49,402 nucleotides of DNA, taken from the NCBI GenBank assembly GCA_964444085.1, contig CAYUGC010000003.1, forward strand, positions 1 through 49,402. Direction: 5' to 3'. Origin of the DNA: an uncultured Bifidobacteriaceae bacterium. GTDB lineage: Bacteria > Verrucomicrobiota > Verrucomicrobiia > Limisphaerales > UBA11358. Under the pieces are notes generated by a model. It was not told the DNA's origin. It did not search any database and saw nothing but the letters and a program-made list of their open reading frames with translations. The position numbers and the translations under genes were made by a program. Of the stretch, positions 1,017 through 30,881 are shown in pieces; the first letter of the stretch is position 1, and each line of letters begins with the position of its first letter.

Positions 1017-1047
1017 TTTTGGCCGTAAAAAAAATATTTTGGCCGCG

Positions 1048-1926: not shown

Positions 1927-1933
1927 AAAAACT

Positions 1934-1994: not shown

Positions 1995-2042
1995 AATTAA
2001 GGCTGGACGACAAAACGGTGGTGGGATTCACTTGCCGGAGCC

Positions 2043-2806: not shown

Positions 2807-2834
2807 AACGGCGCGTCATTTAAGACGCGCCGTT
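2807..2834. terminator. Bidirectional hairpin between convergent genes
   Basis: AACGGCGCGTC-atttaa-GACGCGCCGTT, a perfect 11-bp stem, flanked by an A-run on the left. Lies between the stop at 2806 (+) and the stop at 2854 (-). Confidence 0.6.
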
Positions 2835-2853
2835 GGCGGAAACTTTCTTCAGC

Positions 2854-9576: not shown

Positions 9577-9600
9577 GGTTGTATTGGTATTAACTGAAAA

Positions 9601-11301: not shown

Positions 11302-11365
11302 GGCTTGAATGGGTTGGTTCAATTGATTTTGGCCGGAGATTTTTTTATTGGATTGTCTGGGTTCG

Positions 11366-11836: not shown

Positions 11837-11840
11837 GGGT

Positions 11841-13084: not shown

Positions 13085-13091
13085 AGGTGCG

Positions 13092-14174: not shown

Positions 14175-14245
14175 GGGTGATTCTTATCGGTTGGTCAGTT
14201 TTGTTTCAAGACTGATTTTTGGTTTTCTTTTTCCGACCCTTGCCA

Positions 14246-14261
14246 AGCAGTTGCCGCGCCA
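14246..14261 (-). promoter_or_regulatory. sigma54-type -24/-12 promoter candidate upstream of pilM
   Basis: The minus strand reads TGGCGCGGCAACTGCT (GG and GC spaced as in the TGGCACG-N4-TTGCW consensus), ~72 nt upstream of the pilM ATG. Near-identical to the box at 17682-17697. Confidence 0.5.
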
Positions 14262-14344
14262 ATCCGGCGGCGGCGGATGGGATAAGTTGTGTAATCCTCC
14301 CGCCGCCCCCCCGCCGGGCGGCTCCGGCGTTGGTTGTATCCGAA

Positions 14345-14424
14345 TTTGGAGTGCGGCAACATGTTGCCGCTTTCCGCCGCCGCGACATGTCGCGGCATTC
14401 CCCAGCGCGGACGTGTCCGCGCAC
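14345..14424 (-). repeat. 80-nt triple-palindrome intergenic element, copy B (inverted relative to copy A at 30957-31036)
   Basis: Three palindromes: CGGCAACATGTTGCCG, GCGACATGTCGC, GCGGACGTGTCCGC. I count 61/80 identities to copy A when reverse-complemented. Flanked by the direct repeat CGGCTCCGGCGTT(T)GG at 14319-14333 and 14439-14454. Confidence 0.7.
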
Positions 14425-14513
14425 TACCAATCAGGACACGGCTCCGGCGTTTGGGGACAGAGAATCTTTACCCGCCGTCCACCGGCTGTCTTTGTGGGTG
14501 ACAAGGCTGTCCT

Positions 14514-14543
14514 GAAAAATTCCGCCCGGCCGGAGGCGGGCGG
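14514..14543 (-). terminator. Rho-independent terminator after the minor-pilin operon
   Basis: Minus strand: CCGCCCGCCTCCGGCCGGGCGG hairpin followed by AATTTTT, starting 8 nt after the stop at 14552. Confidence 0.55.
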
Positions 14544-14551
14544 GGACAAAA

Positions 14552-16447: not shown

Positions 16448-17104
16448 TTATTCCGGCAGGTGCGGCGTGGCGCGGAACTCGATCTTGTAATAGTCGTAAA
16501 GCCCGTTGGTGCCAACCGGCGTAAGCGGATATTGAAACTGGCAGTATTGCAGCGTCGTGTGGACTACCTGCTTCCAGCCCCTGCTGGTGCCGTCGTTCGT
16601 CATGAGATTGCCGTTGAAATTTTCCACGTTGAACGTGTAGCCGCCGCCCAGCCAGTTCACCAGGTTGGAGGCCAGCACCACCGGGTTCCAGACTGTGTTG
16701 GTGGCATTTCGCACCAGATGGCCGTCGTTGTTGTTGGAATAGGTCAGGTCAAAGTAATAAAGGATATACGCGCTGCCGTTCGTGCTCTCAAACAACTTTA
16801 GCGCCGTGCCCGACGCGGCATTGGTGGCGATTACAAAATTGGTTCCTGACATGTTGCCGATGAACCACATCTTCGCCTGCTTGATGTCCTCCGGCAGCTT
16901 CTGCAGCACCTTCCGCGAGGAATCGCTCGCGCCGCTCTTGGTCTCGACCCACTGGTCCTCGCGCAGCCCCACCAAGTGCGCGGCCATGATGGCGATGATC
17001 AGCATGGTCATGATCGCCGAGGCGAACATGATTTCGACGAGCGTGCCGCCGGCTTCAGGCCGGCGGCGTTTGCCGGGTTGGAATGGGAGCAGGCAGATGT
17101 TCAT
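16448..17104 (-). CDS. Prepilin-type N-terminal domain protein (PilW-like minor pilin)
   Basis: Track ORF 16448..17698 trimmed to the ATG at 17104 (MNICLLPFQPGKRRRPEAGGTLVEIMFASAIMTMLIIAIMAA), a class-III signal-peptide-like G/TLVE motif. That start lies 3 nt after the upstream gene's stop (17107). Confidence 0.7.
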   Translation of the reverse strand: MNICLLPFQPGKRRRPEAGGTLVEIMFASAIMTMLIIAIMAAHLVGLREDQWVETKSGASDSSRKVLQKLPEDIKQAKMWFIGNMSGTNFVIATNAASGTALKLFESTNGSAYILYYFDLTYSNNNDGHLVRNATNTVWNPVVLASNLVNWLGGGYTFNVENFNGNLMTNDGTSRGWKQVVHTTLQYCQFQYPLTPVGTNGLYDYYKIEFRATPHLPE

Positions 17105-17106
17105 TC

Positions 17107-17652
17107 TTAAAATGGGGCGCGGTTGTCCGGCGCCAGCAGGGTGCCTACGGTGTTGGTATAGGTTCGCTTGGAAAATTTCCCCCAGCCGGCAAACGGCCAC
17201 ACCGTGTCCACCCGGACCATCTGGAGTTGGATGTTTGGATTGGTGACGCCATTGACGAACACCTGTGAGACGGTGATGAAATTGGTGGCGATGCTGTAAT
17301 TGTTGGTATGCCACGGCACGTCCAAAATGTTCGTGGTATAGCCGGTCATTGTCCAGCCGCCGCCCGCCGTGGCGTTCGTCACCTTGTTTATCAGGCTCAT
17401 GCCCAGGATTTCGATTTTGCCGCTGGAGGCATCCCACGCTGCCGAGCGTGTCTGCTCCAGCGTTTGCAGCGAGAGGGTCTGTGCCGCGAGCGAAAAGCCC
17501 GACCACTCCGCCTTCGTCGCGCCGCCGACGTAACCGCCCACGATGGTGCCAAACGAAACCGCCACAATGACGAAGGCGATGAGCACCTCCCACAGCCCGC
17601 CGACATAGCCGGCTTGCCGCCGCCTGCCGCTGATGTTTTGTCTTATGTGCAT
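17107..17652 (-). CDS. Prepilin-type N-terminal domain protein (PilV/GspH-like minor pilin)
   Basis: Trimmed to the ATG at 17652: MHIRQNISGRRRQAGYVGGLWEVLIAFVIVAVSFG (Gly-hydrophobic-Glu pilin-like N-terminus). Confidence 0.65.
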   Translation of the reverse strand: MHIRQNISGRRRQAGYVGGLWEVLIAFVIVAVSFGTIVGGYVGGATKAEWSGFSLAAQTLSLQTLEQTRSAAWDASSGKIEILGMSLINKVTNATAGGGWTMTGYTTNILDVPWHTNNYSIATNFITVSQVFVNGVTNPNIQLQMVRVDTVWPFAGWGKFSKRTYTNTVGTLLAPDNRAPF

Positions 17653-17681
17653 GAAATGATTCTCCGCAACCTCCGAAACGT

Positions 17682-17697
17682 AGCACTTGCCGCGCCA
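17682..17697 (-). promoter_or_regulatory. sigma54-type -24/-12 promoter candidate upstream of the minor-pilin operon
   Basis: The minus strand reads TGGCGCGGCAAGTGCT, ~30 nt upstream of the ATG at 17652. 15/16 identical to the pilM-proximal box. Confidence 0.5.
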
Positions 17698-17787
17698 TTT
17701 TTCCAAATTCTTATTCACCCCACCTGCCGCGTCAATCCTCGTTCCACAACGGGACAGCCTTGTCCCAAATCACCGCAGTCGGTGGGA

Positions 17788-18660
17788 TTACACCAGCTCC
17801 TTCGCCCGCTGCCGGGCCATCTGCAGGAACGCCTCCAGCAATGGCGTCGCCTTGCCGCGCCACTGCGCGCCGATGAGCGCCGGCGGAAAATTCTTCAGCG
17901 GCAGCACCCGCACGTTCGCCGGCAGCGGGCGCTGCGGCACCGCCACGCCGAGGCCGATGCCCAGTCCGCCTGCCACATAGGTCTCAATCAGGTCCACCGA
18001 GCTGGCCTCCACCGTCGGGAACCATTCCACGTCCAGCTCCGCCAGCCGCGCCAGGAAATTTTTCGTCAGCGGCTCCGTCGCCGGCAGGCAGATGAGCGAC
18101 TCGGTGATCTTGTCGCGCGCCCACAGTTCTTCCGCCGACTTCAGTGTGGACTTTTTTTCCACCAGCAGCGCCAGCGGCAGCTCCAGCAAAATTTCCGACT
18201 GGAAACCCGCCGGCGGCTTGCGCTCGACCAGCGTGATGACCATGTCAATTTCATCCTTCGCCAGCAAATCCTCCAGTTGCGCCGGGAACCCTTCGCGCAA
18301 GGAAACCTTCAGGCCGGGAAATTTTATATGCACGCCTTGCAACAACTTTGGCAGATGGTCGCGCAGCACAATCGTCGAGGCGCCGATGCGGAAATGCCGC
18401 GCGTGCCCGCCTTGGAATTCCGCCGCGACCTTGCCGAGGTTCGTGAAAAACGGCGCGCAGAAGGCGTAAAGCTTTTCGCCCGCCGGCGTCAGCGCAAACG
18501 GTCGCCGCTGAAAAAGCGTCACGCCTAAATATTCTTCAAGTTGCGCCACCTGTGCGCTCACCGCCGGCTGCTGGATGCCGTAGGGGATGTTGCGCACCGC
18601 CGGCATGATGCCGCCGTGCCGGGCGACGTAGTAAAAAAGTTCGAGGTGATGGACATTCAT
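17788..18660 (-). CDS. LysR-family transcriptional regulator
   Basis: Trimmed to MNVHHLELFYYVARHGGIMPAVRNIPYGIQQPAVSAQVAQLEEYLGVTLFQRRP (canonical LysR HTH), followed by a substrate-binding domain. Confidence 0.9.
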   Translation of the reverse strand: MNVHHLELFYYVARHGGIMPAVRNIPYGIQQPAVSAQVAQLEEYLGVTLFQRRPFALTPAGEKLYAFCAPFFTNLGKVAAEFQGGHARHFRIGASTIVLRDHLPKLLQGVHIKFPGLKVSLREGFPAQLEDLLAKDEIDMVITLVERKPPAGFQSEILLELPLALLVEKKSTLKSAEELWARDKITESLICLPATEPLTKNFLARLAELDVEWFPTVEASSVDLIETYVAGGLGIGLGVAVPQRPLPANVRVLPLKNFPPALIGAQWRGKATPLLEAFLQMARQRAKELV

Positions 18661-18720
18661 GGCGCGCGCCTCTGCCGTCAGTCTTATCGAAGCGGCTGGC
18701 TGCTGCAAGTGTCGAACGGA

Positions 18721-19671
18721 TTATTTTTGCACCGGCACCGCCGGGTTCACCGGCGTGAACGGATTGTCCGCGCGGGTCGCGGCGCGGACGCCAAGCGCCG
18801 CGCCCTCGTCGCGCACCAGGTGGCTCAGGCTGCGCAAACCGTGCCCGGCATTCTCGACGGAAAAATTATACCACTGCGCGTGTTCATCCGTCACGATGCC
18901 GTCCACGCCCATTTTAATATAGTGTTTCAACAGGATCGGATTGTTCACCGACCACGTTCCGACGAAACGGATTTGGTGCAGTTCGTCGCGCATCTGGCAG
19001 GCGAGTTTCACCGCGCCGTGAATCAGAAACATGTTCAGGAACGTGTTCACCGGCACAATGCCGTCGCAGAATGCCTGGTTCGCGACATGGGCATCCGTGA
19101 AAATTCCGCTCACCATCACCGGATCGGAATAGCCGTCAATCATCACGCCCTCGCGCGGGCCGAGCTGGTTGGCAATGCGCGCGAACATCGCCTTGTCCTT
19201 GGGCTTGCCGACGGAAATCAATGTCACCATTTCCGTGCGGTCGGGTTCCGCGCCGACCAGGTGCTGGCGGATGGCGGCCAGCAGTTGTTCGCCGTGTTCC
19301 GGCGTGGCCGCGAGCGTCTTGCAGTCGAAATATACGAGGCAGAATTTGTCATCCCCCTTGGCCAGCGTGTGCAGGCCGTCGAGAAATTCCGCCAGCGGTA
19401 TCGCCTCAGTTTTTTTGGTCGCGCCGCCGCCGAGGTCCGGGCCGTGGCCGATGCACAGGACGTTCGTCTCGCCCGCGAGTTCGTTCACGTCAATTTCCAG
19501 CGCGTTCGCGCCCGCCGCGAGACATTCGCGCGCCTTCGCCAGCGTGTTCGCGCCGTGCGCGATGATATAAAATGGCCGCAGCGGCTTGGCTGGTGAATTT
19601 GTTTCCGCACCCAAAACCGCCGGTGCCAAGGCCAGCAGCAGGGCGATACAGATTTTTTGGGCGGCGATCAT
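18721..19671 (-). CDS. Secreted GDPD-fold phospholipase D / sphingomyelinase-D-like enzyme
   Basis: Trimmed to MIAAQKICIALLLALAPAVLGAE (signal peptide). PFYIIAHGANTL...AGANALEIDV...LCIGHGPD reproduces the His / Glu-x-Asp / His catalytic pattern I recall from Corynebacterium PLD and spider SMase D. This is from memory and unverified. Confidence 0.6.
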   Translation of the reverse strand: MIAAQKICIALLLALAPAVLGAETNSPAKPLRPFYIIAHGANTLAKARECLAAGANALEIDVNELAGETNVLCIGHGPDLGGGATKKTEAIPLAEFLDGLHTLAKGDDKFCLVYFDCKTLAATPEHGEQLLAAIRQHLVGAEPDRTEMVTLISVGKPKDKAMFARIANQLGPREGVMIDGYSDPVMVSGIFTDAHVANQAFCDGIVPVNTFLNMFLIHGAVKLACQMRDELHQIRFVGTWSVNNPILLKHYIKMGVDGIVTDEHAQWYNFSVENAGHGLRSLSHLVRDEGAALGVRAATRADNPFTPVNPAVPVQK

Positions 19672-19810
19672 CGTTGGCGCAAACACGGGCGGCACAATAA
19701 TCGCCGCGCCGCGCCGGCAAAAGCAAAATGTCCGCCATTGACGGAAACGATACCGCCGAAGTTTTATCAATTCACGCTCGTGCCGGAAACACGATTACAG
19801 TGGCATTGCG

Positions 19811-20353
19811 ATGAAAGCCATGACCTTTCTTCTCCTGCCGCTGGCCGCGTTGCTGGTGACCGGCTGCGTGGGTCTGGTCGTGCCGCTGCCGTCGTCCGGC
19901 GGTAAGGCTTACGGTCACGCCGTGACGCCGGCGCAGGTGAAGTTCATCGTCCCCGGCCAGACCACGCGGGCGGAAGTCGTGCGGGAGTTCGGCGGCCCCG
20001 GCCACATTTCACTGCGGCAGCCGGCGCTGGCCTACACTTGGGAGGAACCTGCCGCCGACCTGCTGTGGTTCTGGATCATTCCGTTTCCGCCGGGAGCCGG
20101 CGACGGCGGCTGCGTCGAACGCGCCCATTGGCGGGCATTTTTTGTGGCGTTTGATGCGGCGGGAAAAGTCAGCCGCACACAATTCATTTTGCTCGCCGGT
20201 GGCCGGTCGCTGGACGAGCAGCTCGACCGCTGGGCGGTGCGCGACCGCGAAGCCTGCCGGGTGGCCGAAATTTTCTTTGATGCCGATTCCGGCGCGCCCA
20301 TTTTCGTCCAGGCGGCGCTGGATCATTTGGGCAAACGCTACCAACAAAAATGA
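19811..20353 (+). CDS. Lipoprotein, SmpA/OmlA(BamE)-like fold suspected
   Basis: 180 aa. Lipobox LLVTGC. The motif ...IVPGQTTRAEVVREFGGP... is typical of the BamE-like domain. Confidence 0.6.
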   Translation: MKAMTFLLLPLAALLVTGCVGLVVPLPSSGGKAYGHAVTPAQVKFIVPGQTTRAEVVREFGGPGHISLRQPALAYTWEEPAADLLWFWIIPFPPGAGDGGCVERAHWRAFFVAFDAAGKVSRTQFILLAGGRSLDEQLDRWAVRDREACRVAEIFFDADSGAPIFVQAALDHLGKRYQQK

Positions 20354-20415
20354 AGCCGCACCTTCCATTCGCCGTGCTCCCGTCCGCGCCGAAACGGTGC
20401 GGGCTGCAAAAGGTT

Positions 20416-20826
20416 TCAACCTTTGATCCGCTTTTTCAAAGTCCACCAGCACTCCGCCATCAGGAGGAAAAACACCGCATCGGCGATGCCGAAGATTTCG
20501 CCGAAGGCGACGTGCGGCAGGTGGCCTTGCGCCCAGTAATAAATGGCCGTGCCCGCATAGGCCAGTTTGTAGAGCGTGCCGACGAGGATCAAATCCGCGT
20601 TGCGCTGCAAATCGCCACGCGCGATCAAAACATAGGCGATGCCGATGACCAGCACGAACGCGCCCAGCAGCGTCAGATAACCGCGGATTGCCGGCAGCTT
20701 GTCGCTGATGCCCAGCGCGGCAAAGGCGCGCTCGGCAAAAAACATGAAGGTGACGCCGAGCAGAAAATCGTAAATGGCGGAGATGGTAAAAAGGGCCCGA
20801 TAATACTTTTCTCTGGCTGGCTTCAT
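20416..20826 (-). CDS. Small integral membrane protein (4 predicted TM), unknown function
   Basis: Trimmed to the ATG at 20826: MKPAREKYYRALFTISAIYDFLLGVTFMFF... Hydrophobic helices throughout. Confidence 0.6.
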   Translation of the reverse strand: MKPAREKYYRALFTISAIYDFLLGVTFMFFAERAFAALGISDKLPAIRGYLTLLGAFVLVIGIAYVLIARGDLQRNADLILVGTLYKLAYAGTAIYYWAQGHLPHVAFGEIFGIADAVFFLLMAECWWTLKKRIKG

Positions 20827-20862
20827 GTCATAAGTTTGTAGCGCAACCCCGAATGGAATCAA

Positions 20863-21249
20863 ATGAAATCTAATCCAAATCTTTTCCTCGCCTGGCTGTG
20901 GATTCTGCTCGGCTTCGTCTCCGGTATGGTGCTCGGCCTGTTCTTCCACCGCGAAAACTGGCTGGGCGGCTATGGCAGTTTCAAGCGCCGGATGTATCGG
21001 CTCGGCCATATTTCATTTTTCGGCCTCGGTGCGGTCAACCTGCTGTTCTGTCTGACGGTGCAAAACTTTGCGCTGGTGGGGCAGGGCATTGGCATTGCGT
21101 CGTGGGCCTTCATTGTGGGCGCGATTGCGATGCCTGTTTGCTGCGTGGTGATGGCGAGTTTTCCCAAAGCCCGCTTGATTTTTTCCGTGCCGGTCGTGAG
21201 CCTTATCACCGGGGCGACCTTTACCGTGTGGCAACTTTTGAAACAATGA
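20863..21249 (+). CDS. Small integral membrane protein (4 predicted TM), unknown function
   Basis: 128 aa, MKSNPNLFLAWLWILLGFVSGMVLGLFF... Divergent from 20416..20826 with a 36-bp spacer. Confidence 0.6.
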   Translation: MKSNPNLFLAWLWILLGFVSGMVLGLFFHRENWLGGYGSFKRRMYRLGHISFFGLGAVNLLFCLTVQNFALVGQGIGIASWAFIVGAIAMPVCCVVMASFPKARLIFSVPVVSLITGATFTVWQLLKQ

Positions 21250-22099
21250 GAACGCTGGCTGCCAGCTTGGTTGAATTGTGCTACCACCGTCTTTCGTTCG
21301 CCCTGAGAGCCGGTCTAAAAATGGTGGCGTCGGCCATCTTGGCTGACGTAGAGCCGGGGCTTCCAGCCCGGCGGAACGGCGTCGCAGCGAAGAAAACCAC
21401 TGGTCCATTCGGGCGTTTCACCCCGCCGGCGTTTTTTTCGGGCGGCAAGATGCCGCCCTCTGCGGCAAGCAGGGATGCCTGCCACCACAATTTCAGACAG
21501 CCTCTAAGCCGGCGGAACGCCGGCGCTCCGCTTCATCGAAAGGATTCCCCGAATCCCGATTCGCGCATTGCCTTCCCGAACCCTCTTGTGGTCAGGCTTT
21601 GTCGAGACGCAGGGAAAGTTTCTCCCTCTCCGCGTTTGACTGGGGCAGAGGGGTCAAATGGGGCCGGGGTGAGGTGCTCCTCCCACCATCTTGGGGTTCA
21701 TAGGGAGTGGACCGGGTTCATAGGTCCCGCCTTTTCCTTCGGTTCGAACCTTGTTACCCCGGCTGCTCCGGTTTTGAAATCAGCTCCGGGGGCTGGCGGC
21801 ATGCCGCCCCCGGGCTGGGAGAGTGTAAATTGTACAGAAAATATAATATACAATATTAGGCTTGCCTTCCCGGCGACCTTGGCTACGCTGGGTCGCATGC
21901 AGCCTGAATCTCTTCCCCCGTTTCGGTCTGTCCGCAGGCGGCTCGCCGCCTGCGCGATCAGCTTGCCGGGCTGCTCGATCAGGCCTGCGGGGAAACCCTC
22001 GCGCCAACAACCCCGGCAACTCCCACCACACCGCTGGTCCGGCCAAACCACGAATGTATCAAGCCCACAACCACCTCCAGAACGCCACCTTCGGGCCGT

Positions 22100-22176
22100 G
22101 TCACCTTTTGTCACTTTTCTGCACTTCCAAAACCGGGTGACAAAAAGGGACAAATCGTGCCAAAAAGTGCCAAAAA
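22100..22176. repeat. 15-bp-arm inverted repeat plus a 10-bp-phased A-tract array
   Basis: GTCACCTTTTGTCAC (22100-22114) pairs with GTGACAAAAAGGGAC (22137-22151), 13/15 complementary. A-tracts start at 22142, 22152, 22162 and 22172 (exact 10-bp period), with an extra A4 at 22129. Confidence 0.7.
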
Positions 22177-22340
22177 GTGTCATTCGATTGCTCAGAAATG
22201 ATGGGAGCGGGCATTTTTGCCGGGGTGTTTCCCCCTCTTCCGGCCTTCGGTTGCCTTCTCTCCCACCGGGGGAGAAGGTCAGGATGAGGGGGCGCTCGCA
22301 GTCAACCGGGCGTCCATACTTAAGTTTTCTACAAATCCGG

Positions 22341-22372
22341 TCTTCTTTGGTCTGGTTTGGTCTGGTTTGGTC
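22341..22372. repeat. Tandem 10-mer TCTGGTTTGG x3 (first unit TCTTCTTTGG)
   Basis: Read directly: tcttctttgg tctggtttgg tctggtttgg tcg... Confidence 0.8.
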
Positions 22373-22494
22373 GTCTCCCGGGACGCCCACGCCTCCAATT
22401 GGGTGGCCCGGATTGGGTCGCCAGACGGGCTGGCCAGCGCCGATGCCCCTTCCCCTTGGCGGGCGTTCGCCCGGCGGCGCACCGAAACATGGGC

Positions 22495-22540
22495 GACAAA
22501 AACGCCAAAACGCGACAAATTGCGCCAAAACACGACAAAT
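22495..22540. repeat. Second 10-bp-phased A-tract array (alternating CGACAAA / CGCCAAAA)
   Basis: A-tracts start at 22498, 22507, 22517, 22527 and 22537. Ends ~58 nt upstream of the radical-SAM ATG. Confidence 0.75.
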
Positions 22541-22597
22541 CGGGTCTCGGACGGTCTTTGTCAGTGGTTTTGACAGAAACTCAACCATAGGAGCGTT

Positions 22598-23956
22598 ATG
22601 AAAACAATTGCCTTTATCGCCATGAGCGGTGTCCGCGCGCACAACGCGGAACTCACGCAACTCGGTCTTACACTGCCGGGCTTCGTGGACCGCAACAAAA
22701 TCATCGCCTCGCTGCCGAGCCTCGGCCTGCTCACGCTCGCGGGGTTGACGCCGGACAAGTTTGACGTCAGCTATCACGAAATCGCGGACCTGAAAACGTT
22801 GCCGGAGCTGCCGGTGGATTTCGACCTCGTGGTCATCAGCACCTTCACCGCGCAATTTTACGAGGCGTGCGACGTGGCGGATTATTACCGCGCGAAAAAC
22901 ATTCCGGTCGTCATGGGCGGCATCACCGTCACGTCGCTGCGCGAGCAGGCGAAGGAGCATTGCACCAGCGTCGTCATCGGCGAAGGCGAACTGCTCTGGC
23001 CGGAATTGCTCGCGGACTTCGAACGCGGCGCGCTGAAACCGTTTTACCAGACGGCCAGGGAATTTGATCTCGCCGACGCGCCCATGCCGCGCTTCGATTT
23101 GCTCGACCCGGAGAAATACAACCGCCTCACCGTGCAAACCAGCCGCGGCTGCCCGCACAAATGTGAGTTCTGCGCCAGCTCGATCTTGCTCACGCCGCGC
23201 TACAAGGTGAAGCCGGTGGAAAAGGTCATCGCCGAAATCCGCGCCATCAAAAAGATCTGGGCCAAGCCGTTCATTGAGTTCGCCGACGACAACAGCTTTG
23301 CCCACCGCGAGCATTACAAAAAATTGCTGCGCGAGCTGGCCAAGGAAAATGTCCGCTGGTTCACCGAGGCCGACGTGCGTGTGGCGGAGGATGACGAACT
23401 GCTCGCGCTCATCCGCGATTCCGGCTGTCAGCAGATTCTCATCGGCTTGGAAAGCCCGGGTCGCACCAGCCTTCACGGCCTCGAGACGAAATCGGATTGG
23501 AAATTCCGCCAGCAGGATTTTTACAAGGAAGCGATCGCGAAGATCCAATCCTACGGCATCACGGTGAACGGCTGTTTCATCCTCGGCCTCGACGGCGACA
23601 CGCGCGACGTGTTTACCGATGTGCTGGATTTCGTGCGCGACTCCGCGCTCTACGAGGTGCAGGTGACGTTCCTGACCGCGTTTCCCGGCACGCCGCTTTA
23701 CGCGCGGCTGAAAAACGAGGGCCGCATTCTGCGCGACCGCGCGTGGGAACTGTGCACGCTGTTCGATATCAATTTTCAGCCGAAGAACATGAGCCTGGCC
23801 GAACTGCAAGCCGGCTTTCTCGGCCTGGTGAAACTGCTTTATTCCGCCGGGGAAACACATGCGCGCCGGACCAACTTCAAGCGCATGTTGAAAACCTCGC
23901 CGCACTTTGGCCGGCACGCCAAGCGCGACGATAAGCAGTTGGCCGTGCAAAATTAG
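22598..23956 (+). CDS. B12-binding-domain radical SAM protein (class B)
   Basis: 452 aa. N-terminal Rossmann-like B12-binding region (FDLVVISTFT...NIPVVMGGITV). Radical SAM cluster motif SRGCPHKCEFCAS (CX3CX2C). AGGAG lies 5 nt upstream of the ATG. Confidence 0.9.
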   Translation: MKTIAFIAMSGVRAHNAELTQLGLTLPGFVDRNKIIASLPSLGLLTLAGLTPDKFDVSYHEIADLKTLPELPVDFDLVVISTFTAQFYEACDVADYYRAKNIPVVMGGITVTSLREQAKEHCTSVVIGEGELLWPELLADFERGALKPFYQTAREFDLADAPMPRFDLLDPEKYNRLTVQTSRGCPHKCEFCASSILLTPRYKVKPVEKVIAEIRAIKKIWAKPFIEFADDNSFAHREHYKKLLRELAKENVRWFTEADVRVAEDDELLALIRDSGCQQILIGLESPGRTSLHGLETKSDWKFRQQDFYKEAIAKIQSYGITVNGCFILGLDGDTRDVFTDVLDFVRDSALYEVQVTFLTAFPGTPLYARLKNEGRILRDRAWELCTLFDINFQPKNMSLAELQAGFLGLVKLLYSAGETHARRTNFKRMLKTSPHFGRHAKRDDKQLAVQN

Positions 23957-23998
23957 ATTGATTCGCAAACCAATCGGATTCACAACGGTATTACCGCC

Positions 23999-25186
23999 AT
24001 GAAAACCACCGACATCGAAAAAATCCACGAGGCCGGCTTCATCACGGCCGAGCAGCGCGACAAAATCATCGCGCACTTCGGCTTGAAGGAGGAAGGCGGC
24101 AAGTTTCTCGTCATCATCTCCTTCATCGGCGCGGTGATGATTGCGGCGGGCATCGCGCTGCTCATCTCGGCGAATTGGAATGACATTCCGCGCGGTGTGA
24201 AAATCGCCGCCGGCCTTGTGCTCATGCTCGGCGCGCATGGCGCGGGCTGGTGGCTGCGCGAAGTCCACGGCCAATACCGCAAGACCGGCGAGGCGCTGCA
24301 ATTTCTCGGTTCCGCGCTGTTCCTCGCCAACATCGCGCTGGTCGGCCAGATTTATCACCTCGAATCGCGCACGCCGAACGCCTTCCTGCTCTGGCTGCTC
24401 GGCCTTGCCGCGCTGCCGTGGCTGCTGCGTTCCAAGGCGCAGTTCGCTTTGTTCCTCGCCGCTTTCTCCGTCTGGTTTGGTTGCGAAATTAACGAGCGCG
24501 ACAGCCTGATTTTTTTCAGCAACGAATCGCAGGTGCTCGCCTACGCGCTGCTCGGCCTGAATTTTCTCGGCGCGGGTTTTCTGCTGCGTCGGACTCCGTT
24601 TCCCGATTTCGCGCCGGTCGCGGAAAAGCTCGGTGCGCTCGGCCTGCTGCTTTTTGCGTATCCGCTGACGTGGGCGGGCTTTTTGAGCTGGTCGCACGAC
24701 GACGCCAGTTTGTGCCGCTGGCTGCTGCCGGCGCTGGCGGGACTGGCCGTCATCGCGACGGCGGCGGGAGTCGGCAACCTGCCGGGCCTGACGCGGCAAT
24801 GGCGTTTCACCTGGGCGGGATCGCTGGCGGCGGTGGCGGGACTGTTGTGCGCGGCGTTTTTCGCGCCGCGTGAACAGCACTGGTTTTGGGCGGGCAGCTT
24901 TGACATGGTCAATGCCGTGGCCGTCATCACGCTGTTTGTTTTCTGCCTGCTCCAGATCCAGGCCGGCCTGCAACTGCGCTCGCGGTTCCTCGTCAACCTC
25001 GGCGTGGCGTTCATCGGGCTGGACATCGTCTCGGCGTATTTCGGCCTGTTCGGCACGATGGCGCGGACGGGGCTCATGTTCGTGGTGTCGGGCGTGTTCC
25101 TGCTCATCTTCGGGGTGTATCTCGAAAAGAAACGCCGGAAGCTGATAGGAAAAATCAAAACCGCCAAAATTACGGAGGCCGCATGA
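23999..25186 (+). CDS. Polytopic membrane protein, DUF2157/DUF4401-like
   Basis: 395 aa. Short cytoplasmic N-terminus (ITAEQRDKIIAHFGL), then ~11 hydrophobic helices. Assignment rests on architecture and on its conserved pairing with the following GDYXXLXY gene, as I recall it. Confidence 0.65.
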   Translation: MKTTDIEKIHEAGFITAEQRDKIIAHFGLKEEGGKFLVIISFIGAVMIAAGIALLISANWNDIPRGVKIAAGLVLMLGAHGAGWWLREVHGQYRKTGEALQFLGSALFLANIALVGQIYHLESRTPNAFLLWLLGLAALPWLLRSKAQFALFLAAFSVWFGCEINERDSLIFFSNESQVLAYALLGLNFLGAGFLLRRTPFPDFAPVAEKLGALGLLLFAYPLTWAGFLSWSHDDASLCRWLLPALAGLAVIATAAGVGNLPGLTRQWRFTWAGSLAAVAGLLCAAFFAPREQHWFWAGSFDMVNAVAVITLFVFCLLQIQAGLQLRSRFLVNLGVAFIGLDIVSAYFGLFGTMARTGLMFVVSGVFLLIFGVYLEKKRRKLIGKIKTAKITEAA

Positions 25187-25731
25187 AAAACAAACTGCTC
25201 ATCCTCGTCCTCGCGCTTCAGGCCGCGTGGGTGCTCGGCACCGTTGTCCGGCAGGAAAATCTTCTGCGCGTCGGGCAGGTGGTGCTGCTCGAAACCCAGC
25301 CGGTGGACCCGCGCGATCCGCTGCGCGGCGATTTCGTGCGTCTCAACTACAAGATCAGCGACGTGCCGGTGAATTTGTTTGCGCCGCCGGTGAAAACGGA
25401 TCTGCCCGCCGGCGCCAAAATCTACGTGGCGCTCGCGCCGGCGGGGACAAACGGGTTTTATGAAGTCACGCGCGCCAGCCGGGAAAGGCTGGTGCCGGCG
25501 ACCGGTGAGATCGTGCTGCGCGGCAAGAGCGGGCGAAGCTGGCGCAGCGCCGCCGGCTCCATTCACGTCGAATACGGGCTCGAACAATATTTCGTCGCCG
25601 AGGGCACCGGCAACCCGCACGGCAAGCTCACGGTGCAGGCCGCCGTGGACAAATCCGGCACCGCGCGCATCAAGGAAGTTTTCGTGGACGGCCAGACTTA
25701 CGCCGAAGCGATGAAACCTGCCGCCCGCTGA
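25183..25731 (+). CDS. GDYXXLXY-domain membrane-anchored protein
   Basis: 182 aa. N-terminal anchor MKNKLLILVLALQAAWVLG. The motif DPRDPLRGDFVRLNY matches the family-defining GDYxxLxY. The start overlaps the previous stop (ATGA at 25183-25186). Confidence 0.8.
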   Translation: MKNKLLILVLALQAAWVLGTVVRQENLLRVGQVVLLETQPVDPRDPLRGDFVRLNYKISDVPVNLFAPPVKTDLPAGAKIYVALAPAGTNGFYEVTRASRERLVPATGEIVLRGKSGRSWRSAAGSIHVEYGLEQYFVAEGTGNPHGKLTVQAAVDKSGTARIKEVFVDGQTYAEAMKPAAR

Positions 25732-25757
25732 AACGGTCTGACGACCTTTAGACGGTC

Positions 25758-26663
25758 ATGAACAAACGCGCTTTCACGCTTATCGAATTGCTGGTGGTCA
25801 TCGCCATCATCGCAATCCTGGCGGCGCTGCTGCTGCCGGCGCTGTCCAAGGCCAAGCAGCGGGCGCAGGGCGCGGTCTGCCTCGGCGGCGGCAAGCAGAT
25901 GATGGCCGCCATGCTGTTGTATGTGGACGAGAACAACGACCGCTTTCCACCCAACCCCGACGACGGCAACACCGTGCCCGGCCACAACTGGTGCTGCGGC
26001 AATGCCGGCATCGGCGGACCGCAGGAATTCAACCCCGATGTGCTGGTGGACCCCACGCGCAGCCTGCTAATCGGCTTCCTTTCCGGCAATGCCAGGATGT
26101 TTTGCTGTCCCGCCGACCGGCGCGAGGGGATTTATCAGGGTACCAACAACCCCGCCTTGATCGGGCAGATCGTTCCCGCCGCGCGCACTTTCGCCATGAA
26201 CCAGGCCGTCGGCAGCATCTGTCCCGGCTATGATGCCAGTGAATTCTCAGGCTCCGGTTATGTGCATAGTGGCGCGTCAACTTTGTCGGTCAACGGCCCG
26301 TGGTTGGACAGTTCCTTTCATCACCGGCGCAATTCTCCGTGGAGCACCTACGGCAAAATCTCCACCATCGGCGCTCCCGGCCCCTCGTCGCTCTGGGTGC
26401 TGCTGGATGAAAATGCGGGCAAGCTGAACGACGCCGCGTTTGCCATGAGCCTGCAGACGCCCGGCTGGCTGGATTGGCCGGGTTCCTATCATGCCGGCGC
26501 GTGCGGGCTGGCCTTTGCCGACGGCCATTCCGAAACACACCGCTGGCGGCAGGACAGCACGCTGCATTCCGGGCAGGGGGCGATGGGCACCGGCTCCGCC
26601 AACCCGGCGGACTGGCCGGACTGGCAATGGCTCGCCGACCGCACCTCCGCCCGCGCGCAGTGA
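25758..26663 (+). CDS. Prepilin-type N-terminal cleavage/methylation domain protein with DUF1559-like C-terminal domain
   Basis: [37 protein letters not shown]... and ...[13 protein letters not shown] near the C-terminus. This architecture is expanded in PVC bacteria. Confidence 0.85.
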
Positions 26664-26786
26664 GGCGGGGATTTGGGGAAAACTTCTGGCCGTTTGGGTG
26701 AAATGATTTCACCGCATTGATCGTCGGCTGATAGCCAGCCCCGTTCAGGGGCGGAATCTTTGTAGCCGGAGAATCTCCAAAAATTC

Positions 26787-26841
26787 AAGCTCCGTCCGGA
26801 GCGACATCATCAGGGTATGCCGCTCCTGAACGGAGCTTTTT
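26787..26841. terminator. Nested hairpin between convergent genes (REP-like)
   Basis: AAGCTCCGT (26787-26795) pairs with ACGGAGCTT (26830-26838), with an inner GGAGCG/CGCTCC stem, followed by TTTT. Confidence 0.5.
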
Positions 26842-26875
26842 CAATTAGCGATGTCGATTCCCATGCCCTTATGCT

Positions 26876-28096
26876 TCACTGAAGTTGAAAAATATAGAAA
26901 CGTTGTTTGTCACTAGCGGTGACCGGGTTGGTGAAGTTGAAGTTTCCGCTGCCATTAAAAACATTGGTGGCAATGCGTGTCCAGCTTGAACGTGGCAATG
27001 TTAGGTTGGTTGTGGTCAACACGTAGAATGTGCCGTTGTTCAGACCGTTCGTGCCAGCGAACACGGCGTTTGTGCCATTGAGCGTCAGCGAGGTCACGAC
27101 TGGCCGCTTGGGAACCGCGAAAAGAAACTGGCTTGGCTGCAACGCCGTGTCGCTGATGCGGACTTCATCAATGTAGCCGTAGAAACGGTCAACGTGATCG
27201 TCGCCTGGATTCGCGCTGGTGCCGAAACGTCCACGGCCAACCGACCAAGCCCAGGTGCTGCCATCCGACATCGTTGCATAAGTCCCTGTTGGAATGGCCA
27301 AAGCGGTGTTGGTGCTGGTTTCCGCCATCGTGCCGACGAGTTGGTAGCCGTTGCCATCGGTGGAATCTTTGTAGAGGAACAGGTTTGTTCCGTCGCTCAC
27401 AGCAGCTACATTATACCAATGGTTGAGCGCCAAGCTGACTGAATCGTGGAGGTCGTAATAAACTCCTGCTCTGTCCATAAACTTAATGACCAGATTGGTC
27501 AAATTTGGAAAGTAATTATATACGGAAAAATATAGTGGGCTTTGACCGGCGTCAATATTGGCAACGTGATTGCCATCCCGCCCGACAAAAGTATGAAATT
27601 GCCCGGTGAACGATGTGCAATAGATGGACGCCTCAACCGTCCATGCTTTGGGGCTTATGGTTTCAATGTCCGTGCCGGTGGGATGTGATATGGCCGACCA
27701 AGTCGCAATGGCTGGATAATTGTTTCCGTAAGGCACCGTCCAAATTGACCAATTATTGCTCGCCTCGGTCTGAGGTAACGTCGGCGCGGGCACAAAATTT
27801 TCATATTCAATCCAAAAGCCATTATATCCGGCGGGATTGCTGTCCCAACTGTAAAGGGTGTTGCCATTGCCCGACGAATCCACCGCCAGCACGCCATTAT
27901 TTTGCACCGCCGTGTGCTGGGCAAATCCGGTTAACTGCGCGCCGGCCGTGGGCGCATTGGTTCCGTCGCCTTCAAACCGCCAGTAGGCCACGGTGCCAGC
28001 ATGAAGGTAGCTGGACGCAAGCCCGGCCACTAAGATTATTATTTTGCCGATGTTTGTATGCATTTTTGATTTCATATAAAAGATTCCAGTTTTCAT
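26876..28096 (-). CDS. Secreted LamG (concanavalin-A-like lectin) domain protein with C-terminal '...FYIFQLQ' module
   Basis: 406 aa. Signal peptide ...IIILVAGLASSYLHAG. VAYWRFEGDG start and YIDEVRISDTAL end are typical of LamG_3 domains. The last ~75 aa (VVTSLTLNGTNAVFAG...FYVLTTTNL...WTRIATN...QRFYIFQLQ) resemble the tail of three other proteins in this window. Confidence 0.8.
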   Translation of the reverse strand: MKTGIFYMKSKMHTNIGKIIILVAGLASSYLHAGTVAYWRFEGDGTNAPTAGAQLTGFAQHTAVQNNGVLAVDSSGNGNTLYSWDSNPAGYNGFWIEYENFVPAPTLPQTEASNNWSIWTVPYGNNYPAIATWSAISHPTGTDIETISPKAWTVEASIYCTSFTGQFHTFVGRDGNHVANIDAGQSPLYFSVYNYFPNLTNLVIKFMDRAGVYYDLHDSVSLALNHWYNVAAVSDGTNLFLYKDSTDGNGYQLVGTMAETSTNTALAIPTGTYATMSDGSTWAWSVGRGRFGTSANPGDDHVDRFYGYIDEVRISDTALQPSQFLFAVPKRPVVTSLTLNGTNAVFAGTNGLNNGTFYVLTTTNLTLPRSSWTRIATNVFNGSGNFNFTNPVTASDKQRFYIFQLQ

Positions 28097-28192: not shown

Positions 28193-29047
28193 TCACGCCG
28201 GCACGGCCACGCTCACGGTCGCGCTCCAGAGGCCCACTTGTTTGTCGACCAAACGATAGATGGCCTTGTAAGTCCACGCCGCTTTGGCGGTCGGGAAGGG
28301 TTGCGTGTCGGTGTAGTTCGGCGTGGTGTCAATGGTCAGCAAGTTAAACCCCTTGCCATCGCCACGATCCACCTGAATTTCGCAACTGTCCAGCCACGCG
28401 CTGTTGCCTTGCCAGCCCCATTTCACGTCCACTCCGCTGCCGGAGACTTTGGCGCTGATGACCGGTTGCACGGTGCTCAGGTCGGGGCCGTTGTCCGCGC
28501 CGCCCACGATGCCCAGTTCCACGGCGATGGCGTCGGTGATTTTGTGGCCGTTCTTAATGTCCTGCACGGCGGTGAAGAGGCGGGTGAGGGAACCTTCATT
28601 CTGCGGCGTGACGCCGGTGGGCAGGGCGGGCGCGGAGAAACCGGGCAGGGTGACGAGCGCGGCGTTGGTGCCGGTCATGGCGGCGGTGGCGGTCTGGGTG
28701 CAGCCGAGCGAGAAGGTGCGCACGGCGTCGAGCCAGTTTTGGAGGACATAGGCCAGCCAGAGGGCGTCGGCCACGAGGGCGGTGACGGTGGCGGGGGCGA
28801 GGCCCAGCAGGGTGGCTTTGCCGGGGAGTTTGCCGGCGAAGTTGAGCAGCCAGGCGATTTGTTCGGCCATGCGGCTGGGGTAGTAGTCTTGTCTTTTCAT
28901 GTGTGTTTTTTTGTTTTTAGTGGTGTTTACGGACGGAGAGGGGTTCACATAGCCGGGATCGCCGGGTTCGGGGAGGTAGCCCCACCGGAGGTTGGGGTTG
29001 CCCCAATACATTTCCGGGTCGCCGGAATCCCAATAGGCGGTTCGCAT
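28193..29047 (-). CDS. Hypothetical protein with FN3/Ig-like C-terminal domain; start uncertain (29047 or Met at 28900)
   Basis: 284 aa, no signal peptide. The N-terminal 49 aa are W/Y/G/P-rich (YWDSGDPEMYWGNPNLRWGYLPEPGDPGYVNP). After MKRQDYYPSRMAEQIAWLLNF comes a helical region, then a beta-rich end (VDVKWGWQGNSAWLDSCEIQVDRGDGKGF...WTYKAIY). 96-nt gap to the LamG gene on the same strand. Confidence 0.6.
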   Translation of the reverse strand: MRTAYWDSGDPEMYWGNPNLRWGYLPEPGDPGYVNPSPSVNTTKNKKTHMKRQDYYPSRMAEQIAWLLNFAGKLPGKATLLGLAPATVTALVADALWLAYVLQNWLDAVRTFSLGCTQTATAAMTGTNAALVTLPGFSAPALPTGVTPQNEGSLTRLFTAVQDIKNGHKITDAIAVELGIVGGADNGPDLSTVQPVISAKVSGSGVDVKWGWQGNSAWLDSCEIQVDRGDGKGFNLLTIDTTPNYTDTQPFPTAKAAWTYKAIYRLVDKQVGLWSATVSVAVPA

Positions 29048-29138
29048 GGTCGGGTGGGGTTAAAACGGGCATTTTTGGTGTAAATAGTTGATTGCCAGAC
29101 AAAAAACCGGCGTCCAGTTGCTCCGAAACGGTTCCCCC

Positions 29139-29347
29139 GAATGAAAAGGGGGCGCCCCCTTGCGAGATGGGGGCAGTGGAATATGAAAAGGGGGTGAGGA
29201 AACACGCAAAGGGGGTGCCGGAAAATGATTTTGGGGTAACGGAAAACGGAAAGGGGGCGCTGGAAAATGGTTTTCCGGGGTGGAAAAATGAAACGGGGGC
29301 GGCGGGAAATGAAATTCCGGCACCGGAAAACCAAATGGGGGCGTCGG
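29139..29347 (+). repeat. Ten tandem, degenerate 21-bp purine-rich repeats (consensus ~GGAAAATGAAAAGGGGGCGCC)
   Basis: G4-5 runs start at 29148, 29169, 29190, 29211, 29233, 29253, 29277, 29295 and 29337, with one degenerate unit near 29316. Spacing is 21 +/- 3 bp. All six frames are open across it. Confidence 0.8.
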
Positions 29348-29792
29348 TCAAGGATTGGGAGGCGGCGGGCGGAGCGACCGTCTGGAGAAAGACGCGGAGA
29401 CTATGCGCGGTTGCCGTTGCGCGGTTGCCCAAATCCCAATTCATAAATAACACGACCAGCTTCCGATAAGGAGGGCTGGGATTGTAAGCCAATATTTTAG
29501 AAAAGCAAATCATCACCAGCGACGGGCATAGACCGCCGCTACAAATTTAAGACCGGTTTTTCGTGGCAAACCCATTTTGACGTTCCCCGCGTCTGGGAAA
29601 TATCCGGCGCTGGATGGGGCGAGCCATCATTCAAGCCACCGGAACCGTGAATCCACGCTACGCCTTTCAGTAATGTCATCCCCCTACGGCTCCGTGCCGT
29701 GGGGGGGCCGGTTTGCCCGGTGAAGGCGGCTTTCGCCGTGTTAAAAACTTGCCTTTGCCAGCCGCTTTGTGAAAAAATTCACGAAGTATTTT

Positions 29793-30881
29793 ATGGCACA
29801 CGCTAAACTGCACATACCGGGGCCGGTCGAGGTCAGCGAAAAAACCTTCAAGGCTTTTTGCTCGCCGATGATTGGCCATCGCGGCCAGGGGTTCAAGGAC
29901 CTCTACGCCAAAATCCAGCCGCAACTGCAAACGCTGCTGTCCACCAAGCAACTGGTTTATTTGAGCACGTCCTCCGCGTGGGGCGTCATGGAAGGTTCTC
30001 TCCGCAATCTCGTACAGAAGAAGGTGCTGAACTGCATGTGCGGCGCGTTCTCGGACAAGTGGTTCGATGTCTCCAAGAAGTGCGGCAAGCAGGCCGACGC
30101 GCTCCAGGTGGAATGGGGTTCCCCGATTCGCGCCGAGGCGATTGACAAGAAGCTCGCCACGGGCGAATTCGACGCGGTGACGCTCATCCACAATGAGACT
30201 TCCACCGGCGTCATGTCGCCGCTCGCGGAAATCGCCGCACTGAAGAAGAAATATCCCGATGTCATGTTCATCGTGGACGCGGTCAGCTCGATGACGGCCG
30301 TGCCGCTGAAGTTCGATGAACTGGGCATTGACGTGCTGCTCGCCGGCACGCAGAAGGCGTTCGCCTTGCCGCCCGGACTCGCGGTGTTCGCCGCGTCGCC
30401 CGCCGCGCTCGCGAAGGCGGCGACGGCGAAGGATCGGGGTTATTACTTTGACTTCGTCGAGTTCCAGAAGAATGCCGAACAGAGTATGACGCCGAGCACG
30501 CCGAGCATCGGCCACATCTACGCGCTGTCGTCCAAGCTGGACGATTTCTTCGCGGAAGGGCTGGAGAACCGTTATGCGCGCCACGCGAAGACAAACCAAA
30601 TGACGCGCGACTGGGCGGCGAAGCATGGCTTCAATCTGTTCCCGGAAAAAGGTTTCGAGTCCATCACGCTCACCTGTGTCAGCAACGGCGCGCGTCCTGG
30701 CGGCCGCACGGTGGACGTGGCGAAGCTGCAAAAGCTCGTCAAGGATGAGGGTTTCCTGATCGACGGTGGCTACGGCAAGATCAAGGGTACGACGTTCCGT
30801 CTCTCGAACATGGGCGACGAGACCGAGGCCACGATGAACCAGCTCTACGCCGCGCTCGACAAGGCGATGGCGCAGTTGTAA
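29793..30881 (+). CDS. Class-V pyridoxal-phosphate aminotransferase (alanine-glyoxylate / serine-pyruvate family)
   Basis: MAHAKLHIPGPVEVSEKTFKAF...; ...LIHNETSTGV...; ...FIVDAVSS...GTQKAF (PLP Lys in the TQK context). The track ORF begins at GTG 29769; the ATG at 29793 is preferred. Confidence 0.9.
   Translation: MAHAKLHIPGPVEVSEKTFKAFCSPMIGHRGQGFKDLYAKIQPQLQTLLSTKQLVYLSTSSAWGVMEGSLRNLVQKKVLNCMCGAFSDKWFDVSKKCGKQADALQVEWGSPIRAEAIDKKLATGEFDAVTLIHNETSTGVMSPLAEIAALKKKYPDVMFIVDAVSSMTAVPLKFDELGIDVLLAGTQKAFALPPGLAVFAASPAALAKAATAKDRGYYFDFVEFQKNAEQSMTPSTPSIGHIYALSSKLDDFFAEGLENRYARHAKTNQMTRDWAAKHGFNLFPEKGFESITLTCVSNGARPGGRTVDVAKLQKLVKDEGFLIDGGYGKIKGTTFRLSNMGDETEATMNQLYAALDKAMAQL

Follow-up and report, generated by a model that had tools for sequence, protein, structure and literature searches.

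Tandem arrays of protein-binding sites are known from several bacterial systems. The MetJ met-box and ArgR ARG-box arrays consist of contiguous palindromic boxes with dyads at both box centres and junctions, and ARG boxes are spaced 21 bp from centre to centre. Known tandem operators of this kind comprise two to five boxes, the sequence of which is conserved across species. Plasmid iterons and centromere-like arrays (parC of R1 and pSK41, sopC of F) comprise 5–12 direct repeats of 11–43 bp, which are in helical phase and are bound cooperatively. Here, we describe a 21-bp tandem array in a 49,402-nt stretch of contig CAYUGC010000003.1 (the whole stretch is hereafter called the window), located immediately upstream of a gene encoding a 284-aa conserved hypothetical protein. 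The array resembles the MetJ and ArgR operators in its whole-turn spacing (exactly 21 bp), its presentation of sites on one face of the helix and its position at or just upstream of a putative promoter. However, it differs from them in having 5–15 units depending on the locus, in sequence turnover, in polymorphic copy number, in the non-palindromic boxes of the window lineage and in its strict link to one hypothetical protein family. Similarly, it shares with iterons and centromere-like arrays the phased repeats adjoining a gene (autoregulated in the known systems) and a consensus that co-varies with lineage, whereas it is chromosomal, adjoins no gene for a Rep, ParR or ParB-type protein and has a consensus that also occurs before unrelated genes. 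The literature search found nothing relevant on 21-bp repeats in Verrucomicrobia. The explanation that we favour, with slightly less than an even chance of being correct, is that the array is helically phased operator-like DNA for a putative cooperative DNA-binding protein, lying just before the promoter region and adjusted through the gain and loss of whole units.

The array in the window comprises 11 units at positions 29132–29362, as delimited by aligned rows, autocorrelation, G-runs, Tandem Repeats Finder (TRF) and homologous arrays. It lies in a 745-bp intergenic region and begins 85 nt from the ATG of the 284-aa protein gene (28193–29047, minus strand); the array itself has no strand, but its G-rich strand is the plus strand, opposite to the downstream gene. 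Writing the sequence in rows of 21 nt, with 29140 (or 29132) as the starting position, showed that the register is kept for 10–11 units (e.g., AATGAAAAGGGGGCGCCCCCT / TATGAAAAGGGGGTGAGGAAA / AACGGAAAGGGGGCGCTGGAA). The plus-strand consensus is YGCCGGAAAAYGAAAWGGGGG; the array opens with TTCCCCCGAATGAAAAGGGGG and closes with a degenerate unit. The initial annotation, made from the sequence alone, had described ten contiguous units of ~21 bp about 90 bp from the 28193–29047 open reading frame (ORF). This description was borne out, with 11 units in exact and indel-free register, and the G-run starts that it listed (29148, 29169, 29190, 29211, 29233, 29253, 29277, 29295 and 29337; at least four G) were all reproduced, seven of the nine falling in one phase modulo 21. 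Each of the 11 units aligned best with the other units at offset 0; therefore, the array contains no internal indel. The autocorrelation of 29100–29400 showed peaks at lags 21, 42, 63 and 84 only. Within 29132–29362, identity was 0.55 at lag 21 and 0.62 at lag 42, compared with a maximum of 0.44 among 5000 shuffles at lags 5–60, and the lag-21 identity exceeded that of every other 231-nt stretch of the window. The units alternate, giving a 42-bp super-period. TRF reported a period of 42 (29191–29312, score 119) and also a period of 21, and a repeat search of the window found four 80-nt copies spaced 42 bp apart and five copies of AATGAAAAGGGGGCG with spacings of 42, 63, 42 and 42 bp. Matches to a 15-mer consensus, with up to three mismatches allowed, were restricted to the array. 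The units are contiguous and have no spacers, in agreement with the earlier statement that the array does not represent clustered regularly interspaced short palindromic repeats (CRISPR).

Contigs from peat and rhizosphere metagenomes matched the window at 100%, and the nearest named genomes were metagenome-assembled genomes (MAGs) of Verrucomicrobia subdivision 3. DNA was retrieved around homologues of the 284-aa protein at 84, 78, 72, 70, 67, 64, 61, 61, 57 and 55% protein identity; the family loci, covering 55–100% protein identity, belonged to Verrucomicrobia subdivision 3 or were metagenomic. A 21-bp array was present 40–90 nt before the start codon in all 11 family loci with readable upstream DNA. 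Four more homologues with over-extended gene calls showed a periodicity of 7 or 14 residues in the extension, from which 21- or 42-nt arrays were inferred at their loci. The array thus accompanied the family gene in 15 of 15 loci (11 read as DNA and four inferred). The flanking genes on both sides varied from locus to locus, but the array stayed. It was kept down to 55% protein identity, where fourfold degenerate sites are saturated (~0.65 identity). Its absence from relatives, which the initial annotation had named as a reason to abandon a functional interpretation, was not observed; the array was found at the orthologous position in every relative examined. A lag-21 scan of ~159 kb of verrucomicrobial sequence (the window and the other loci) detected arrays only before the family gene and at two loci fetched by pattern. 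The first unit and the distance to the ATG were conserved. Between the window and locus L009, with 87% identity at fourfold sites, the first and last units were conserved and the interior had turned over.

The 284-aa protein has no match in Pfam, NCBIfam or PADLOC and no signal peptide. Its family comprises 414 homologue clusters at E ≤ 1e-5, the sole taxon-bearing name among them being '[Verrucomicrobiota bacterium]' (P0057). The AlphaFold model (predicted local distance difference test score, pLDDT, 82) shows an N-terminus that is conserved but unstructured, followed by a long hairpin of helices and, at the C-terminus, an Fn3 domain. The N-terminal peptide, MRxAYWDSxDPE..NPNLRWG..LEPGDPGY, is strongly conserved in the family and is predicted to be disordered. 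Fold searches with the model returned Fn3 domains only, and a PHROGs search gave a weak match to the Fn3 region only.

Across 11 arrays, 118 of 119 units aligned best at offset 0, although the mean unit-to-unit identity was as low as 0.37 (range 0.37–0.72); the lowest value was that of L134, a very degenerate array. The number of units ranged from 5 to 15, and length changes within arrays involved whole units only. L011 and L012 shared 535 identical upstream bases with a single gap of 105 bp (five units). L007 and L013, with an identity of 0.93 at fourfold sites, differed by one 63-bp gap in the array, whereas their flanking intergenic DNA contained indels of 1, 1, 4 and 45 bp. Free variation in unit number, which had been proposed beforehand as the mark of a neutral minisatellite, was observed in part: the range was wide and five units could differ between identical flanks. 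Assemblies were broken inside or at the edge of the array in L003, L004, L006, L008, L010 and L072, and three contigs identical to the window ended 162–175 nt upstream of the ATG. These breaks are consistent with heterogeneity of unit number in the sampled populations.

The unit sequence differed between lineages. The window, L009 and L011 arrays share the consensus YGCCGGAAAAYGAAAWGGGGG and the L007 and L013 arrays share GGGCACTTTTGAAAAGKGGCG; the consensus is GCGACTGGAGGTTCCGGGCAA in L135, TGAAWGGRGGTGCAACTCCAA in L136, CGCCCCTTGCGGCAAGGGGCG in L137 and YYGGACTTGCGGCAGGTKGCG in L138, and the L134 array retains little beyond GGGGCG at each 21 bp. When the units are placed in a proposed common register, which is uncertain where the types are distant, conservation is highest in the columns of the G-run and of the GAAA or CAA before it. 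Among 45 pooled window-type units, the G-run was nearly invariant. The main polymorphisms affected positions 1 and 11, each a two-state Y and together forming YG steps at a 10-bp interval, and position 16, which is W. In most lineages the unit is palindromic, and the arrays of L136, L137, L007, L013 and L135 have two dyad centres 10.5 bp apart, with a complementarity of 0.5–0.66. These dyads and the YG steps would fit the geometry of a dimer filament. A shuffle test of arm-to-arm compensation was non-significant in eight of 10 arrays. Palindromy is thus a property of the consensus and is not upheld by unit-by-unit compensation, a pattern that half-sites for a protein would show, in contrast to the stems of an RNA.

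Arrays were also found at loci without the family gene. In a metagenome pattern scan with GGGGGNNNNGGAAAANGAAANGGGGG, the matches listed were mostly poly-G/A junk, chiefly on Ga0179593 contigs, and the true arrays among them were L072, L096/L115 and L110 only. Dozens of contigs from one Joint Genome Institute (JGI) sample pair (Ga0179593/Ga0179591; L014–L133) contained long tracts rich in poly-G or poly-A, which match whatever G/A-rich pattern is used and look like a sequencing or assembly artefact. L072, from an organism with 67% GC, has an array of the window consensus ~170 nt upstream of a glycerate kinase gene. L110 has nine window-type units, and the family gene was not found within 10 kb of them. 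L110 and L011 originate from one metagenome (contigs Ga0302320_10000574 and Ga0302320_10000437, respectively), and the similarity between them is limited to the array. In both L072 and L110, as in the window, the downstream gene and the G-rich strand of the array have opposite orientations. The same consensus at the unlinked loci L110 and L072 would be expected for a shared trans-acting factor. With regard to dispersal of the repetitive extragenic palindromic (REP) or bacterial interspersed mosaic element (BIME) type, there was one array in the window, none elsewhere in the ~159 kb and two at other loci (L072 and L110). The array-bearing 410-bp segment of L110 is flanked by direct repeats of ~85 bp (6601–6690 and 7101–7185), each of which is a hairpin-forming element (ACACGGATT...AATCCGTGT); this arrangement suggests that a REP-like element was the site of a duplication, an insertion or a recombination event.

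The segment between the array and the gene (29048–29131, minus strand) is a conserved leader or promoter region, as indicated by the alignment of 11 leaders. Two elements are read on its minus strand: TTTTTGTCTGGCAATCAACTATTTAC, a motif that is bipartite and T-rich (29105 down to 29080), and GTTTTAACCCC (29066 down to 29056). In the window, L007, L009, L011 and L013, the bipartite motif takes the form TTTTCGC-N11-12-ATTTTGC at approximately −58, and in L138 it is at −36. The leader shared by all family loci has the bipartite motif together with GTTTTAACCCC at approximately −20. Directly beside the arrays of L072 and L110 there is a bipartite motif of similar form. The leader also has a conserved T-run (CCGGTTTTTTG and similar), preceded by hairpins that are weak and differ between loci. 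Inspection by eye for sigma-54, extracytoplasmic function (ECF), sigma-70 and Bacteroidetes-type promoters gave no consistent fit across loci. Given the leader motif between the array and the gene, the array sits where upstream activator or repressor sites lie.

The fixed two-turn period, one-turn dyads, uncompensated half-sites, whole-unit indels, unlinked consensus and position relative to the leader together fit a duplex that is read by a protein on one face. From these sequence comparisons, we infer that the duplex rather than a transcript would be the active form, that a protein would bind the array and that the array would regulate the adjacent promoter. In such a mechanism, operator-like sites follow one another at intervals of exactly two helical turns (21 bp), directly before the promoter or leader of the Fn3-domain gene. 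A sequence-specific binding protein, probably dimeric and polymerising laterally, would sit on successive sites of one duplex face. The resulting cooperative protein–DNA filament, from approximately −45 to −300, would set the transcription of the gene as an activator or a silencer. The ancestral unit may have been a 21-bp palindrome of approximately GAAAAGGGG-CGC-CCCCTTTTC, which in tandem would produce two-fold axes at each 10.5 bp on the same face; in the window lineage, one arm might have decayed, so that the GAAAAGGGGG half-site alone recurs at each 21 bp. Slippage or inter-unit recombination would add or remove whole units. Such changes would leave the helical phase intact and alter only how many sites are present, and could thereby tune expression between strains. 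The putative cooperative protein-binding array suggested in the initial annotation is thus the best-supported reading, strengthened by the orthologous presence, the near-perfect register, the dyads at each 10.5 bp in several lineages and the whole-unit changes. A broader interpretation, which is rather doubtful at present, is that these arrays represent an undescribed class of regulatory DNA in Verrucomicrobia subdivision 3, in which 5–15 palindromic operators of 21 bp nucleate a one-faced filament and control a small regulon. In this class, the period would be fixed by the helix, the recognition sequence would co-evolve with the factor and the number of sites would be tuned by slippage.

Several observations weigh against the operator-like reading. 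Window-type units largely lack dyad symmetry (best value 0.43 in the window; 0.43–0.46 across the window, L009 and L011); in the window lineage, the C5 arm (GGGGG-CG-CCCCC) is kept in a few units and is replaced by CGGAAAA in the rest. In all 12 arrays, including L072 and L110, G exceeds C on the strand opposite to the gene. This asymmetry is not explained by a purely two-fold-symmetric site and would fit a strand-specific (RNA) role. The unit number of 5–15, variable even between identical flanks, implies that site dosage is not critical. L134 and L136 come from one sample but have different unit types, and a single factor would be insufficient if they belong to one genome. The distance between the array register and the leader motif, counted on the alignment, was 62, 59 and 60 nt modulo 21 and is thus only roughly constant. 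A sigma-70 scan of the leader gave no consensus match. Finally, judging from its predicted structure, the 284-aa protein is no evident nucleic-acid-binding protein. Since the family protein lacks a DNA-binding fold, the putative factor would have to be encoded elsewhere, and the neighbour tables of the family loci contained no conserved adjoining regulator gene.

The strand asymmetry keeps alive an RNA-level role, an unlikely but serious alternative, in which the array would be transcribed as a long C-rich, G-poor 5′ leader or as a divergent G-rich small RNA and would act as a platform with several hairpins or sites for an RNA-binding protein, or as a sponge, Rho-loading site or attenuator. 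On the gene-sense strand, the first unit is always able to fold into a C5...G5 hairpin, and the distal end of the L110 array has, on the G strand, a terminator-like hairpin followed by a T-run. Hairpin potential is strong in several lineages, but the fold z-score of −10 to −11.5 in L136 contrasts with −2.1 to −2.3 in the window, on either strand; thus, a conserved function cannot depend on hairpins. Arm–arm correlation was significant in L007 (p = 6e-4) and L013 (p = 7e-3), but it can be explained there by duplication of the 42-bp super-unit, and the other arrays tested showed no compensatory signal per unit. Rfam searches extended to E ≤ 10 gave no match at the gathering score in the window, the lowest E-value in 28900–29800 being 1.8, and, in contrast to the conserved proximal leader, the distal side of the array has no conserved promoter-like block. 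A sponge RNA of the CsrB/RsmZ type, proposed in the initial annotation from about 14 GGA triplets, is not supported: GGA occurs 11 times in 29100–29360 on the plus strand, compared with 11.2 ± 2.6 in shuffles of the same composition, and the consensus units of L137 contain none. The arrays do resemble CsrB and RsmZ in their many short, degenerate units of ~20 nt and in the species-variable number of these units, but sponge RNAs lack a strict period, and the arrays have no conserved promoter or terminator of their own. Furthermore, an RNA-level role leaves both the exact 21 nt in every lineage and the dyad axes at 10.5 nt without a reason. The variable copy number would also be consistent with a functionless minisatellite, that is, a slippage-prone, palindromic 21-bp repeat renewing itself by unequal recombination with no benefit to the cell. 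Copy number differs between otherwise identical sequences, contigs end inside the array (L003, L004, L006, L010 and L072), suggesting heterogeneity in the population, and unit order is poorly kept between the window and L009 despite 87% identical neutral sites. This explanation is nevertheless improbable, given that the position was retained in every lineage down to 55% protein identity, that the first unit and the distance to the ATG are conserved and that no single-base indel occurred in 119 units, including those of the degenerate L134 array, while the flanks do gather small indels. Promoter variable number tandem repeats (VNTRs) of contingency loci are comparable in that near-identical strains differ in repeat number upstream of a gene, here one for a probable surface- or glycan-associated module. 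They differ in that steps of 21 bp keep the helical phase and do not alter promoter spacing, and in that the present arrays are deeply conserved rather than lineage-specific.

Near-complete turnover of the unit sequence between lineages, with the period fixed at 21, could alternatively indicate a phase-preserving spacer, in which the array sequence would be of little import and the distance from a distal element (e.g., the GCGCGGTT repeats) to the promoter would have to stay a multiple of two turns. The whole-unit length changes observed within arrays would fit such a spacer, 21 is the smallest integer number of base pairs giving a whole number of 10.5-bp turns and several loci have distal short tandem repeats. 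However, a clear consensus and a near-invariant G-run in each lineage are needless for a spacer, the unit consensus is shared with unlinked loci and the distal GCGCGGTT repeats are missing in L007, L011, L013, L135 and L138; we therefore consider it quite improbable. Non-B DNA as the functional feature (a G-quadruplex, an H-DNA triplex or a cruciform that might, for instance, sense supercoiling or be a hotspot of recombination) is very improbable. The initial annotation had considered a quadruplex or triplex conceivable, and the plus strand of the window array is indeed 73% purine with G5 runs at each 21 nt, window-type units contain a short purine-only mirror repeat (GGAAAA-TG-AAAAGG) and L136 and L137 are highly palindromic. 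However, the 16-nt loops are far from those of a canonical G-quadruplex, the palindromy of window-type units is weak and some orthologous arrays lack regular runs of three or more G or the purine bias (L138 units have mostly GG and a purine content of 51%; L135 units have GGAGG). As each of these properties is lacking in some arrays, no single non-B structure is common to all. The period is also a multiple of three, and 21 nt could correspond to seven codons of a small repeat protein (e.g., PENEKGV on the plus strand) or of an N-terminal extension of the family protein. ORFs were called across the arrays (100 aa in L002 and L005 and 93 aa in L011), the gene-sense ORFs of L134 and L135 are in frame with the family gene, extended proteins exist (P0078, P0096, P0101 and P0119) and window-type arrays have one open frame (AAT GAA AAG GGG). 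Such coding is scarcely credible, however, and the arrays are non-coding in character. The lineage peptides are unrelated (PENEKGV, SRLPGTS, YGELRLE, LEARLQS and WGAPQVK) while the adjacent protein is 55–60% identical, and the called ORFs vary in strand and frame. In the 45 pooled units, the mean information was 1.02, 1.12 and 1.23 bits by phase, with no third-position pattern, and the main polymorphisms fall at codon positions one and two of the open frame. Stops occur in every register-defined frame in at least three of 12 arrays, and in the window, L007, L009 and L011 they also interrupt the frame that leads from the array to the ATG of the family gene; a conserved start codon was not found, and the L011 ORF product had no homologue among 5.8 billion proteins. 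The earlier remark that all six frames are open was not confirmed either, since stop-free frames inside the array numbered one of three on the plus (G-rich) strand and two of three on the minus strand.

Other known elements were compared with the arrays and rejected. Type III toxin–antitoxin systems (ToxIN, AbiQ, CptIN and TenpIN) resemble the present locus in that short tandem repeats directly precede a protein gene, with an intervening T-rich segment able to form hairpins, and in that genomic contexts vary. However, their repeats are 34–45 nt compared with units of 21 nt here, the 284-aa protein, a helical hairpin plus Fn3 domain with no PADLOC or Pfam match, has no ToxN/AbiQ-like fold, and arrays also precede unrelated genes, including that for glycerate kinase. 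A phage or mobile origin was rejected because neither the arrays nor the family protein were found in IMG/VR. Iterons of a replication origin were likewise rejected, given the lack of an adjacent Rep gene, the chromosomal housekeeping context and the absence of a viral-contig match.

The family loci are on contigs of 30–400 kb with housekeeping genes, such as a ribosomal protein operon in L134. Genes for LamG, NHL or Ig-repeat proteins often come after the family gene. In the window, a LamG (Laminin_G_3) protein gene identified by Pfam (26876–28096, minus strand) lies downstream and is probably co-transcribed with the 284-aa protein gene; this neighbour is not kept at all family loci according to the neighbour tables. 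On the other side, a class-V aminotransferase gene identified by Pfam starts at ~29793 on the plus strand. The divergent arrangement with this gene, mentioned in the initial annotation, is incidental, as other loci have different neighbours. In L138, a Y1 transposase gene (REP-associated tyrosine transposase (RAYT)-like, PF01797; 5337–5789) lies ~1.5 kb downstream of the family gene, and an IS110 transposase gene (5440–6804) adjoins the family gene in L011.

A second short tandem repeat, TGCGCGGTTGCC(GT) × 2 with a period of 14, was detected by repeat search distal to the array (29404–29431, plus strand). Such distal repeats are built on GCGCGGTT: TGCGCGGTTGCCGT is present in two copies in the window and in five copies in L009, GCGCGGTT occurs six times with a period of 8 in L134, and L136 and L137 have single copies. 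They are always on the same strand and always distal to the 21-bp array. At the equivalent distal place, L013 and L136 have three to four copies of GAGCCGTGACCGGC. Other phased repeats are present in the window at 22098–22540, upstream of a radical-SAM/B12-binding gene (22598–23956, plus strand). They comprise two clusters of GYGMCAAAAA units with a 10-bp period (22135–22180 and 22493–22540) and inverted copies at 22098–22125, and their motif is similar to the GTGCCGGAAAA half of the 21-bp unit. These repeats are crossed by a 567-aa ORF (20898–22601) that has no Pfam match and may be spurious. On the plus strand of the window, GC skew ranges from +0.1 to +0.18 in the part with minus-strand long ORFs and is ~0 in the part with plus-strand long ORFs (1–16000 vs. 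17000–27000). Sense strands of this genome thus tend to be C-rich, and the skew of the array has the same sign but is far stronger.

Gene callers produced spurious repeat 'proteins' or upstream extensions of up to 138 heptad-like residues at the arrays (P0078, P0096, P0101, P0119, P0113 and P0087; L134 9455–9991; L135 9431–9994; window 29167–29469, plus strand). The last of these, an ORF of 100 aa across the array, was called in the identical contigs L002 and L005 but not in L001, and was judged spurious. Because gene callers run through the arrays, public databases hold artefactual N-termini for the 284-aa protein family.

Verrucomicrobia subdivision 3 (Pedosphaerales-like; soil, peat and freshwater) is abundant but almost uncultured, and its regulation is barely known. 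In this group, the array is a sharply defined and readily spotted cis element tied to one conserved gene family, and it accounts for several artefacts, namely spurious repeat 'proteins', N-terminal extensions and assembly breaks. Its evolutionary signature combines invariant geometry, free sequence and polymorphic copy number. The interest of the finding is this clean comparative signature and a handle on regulation in a poorly known phylum, rather than a demonstrated new mechanism. If a factor binds the array, the array would offer a VNTR marker for strain typing in metagenomes and a natural case of selection on helical phase alone, and it would provide a direct handle on a lineage-specific regulator and its regulon.

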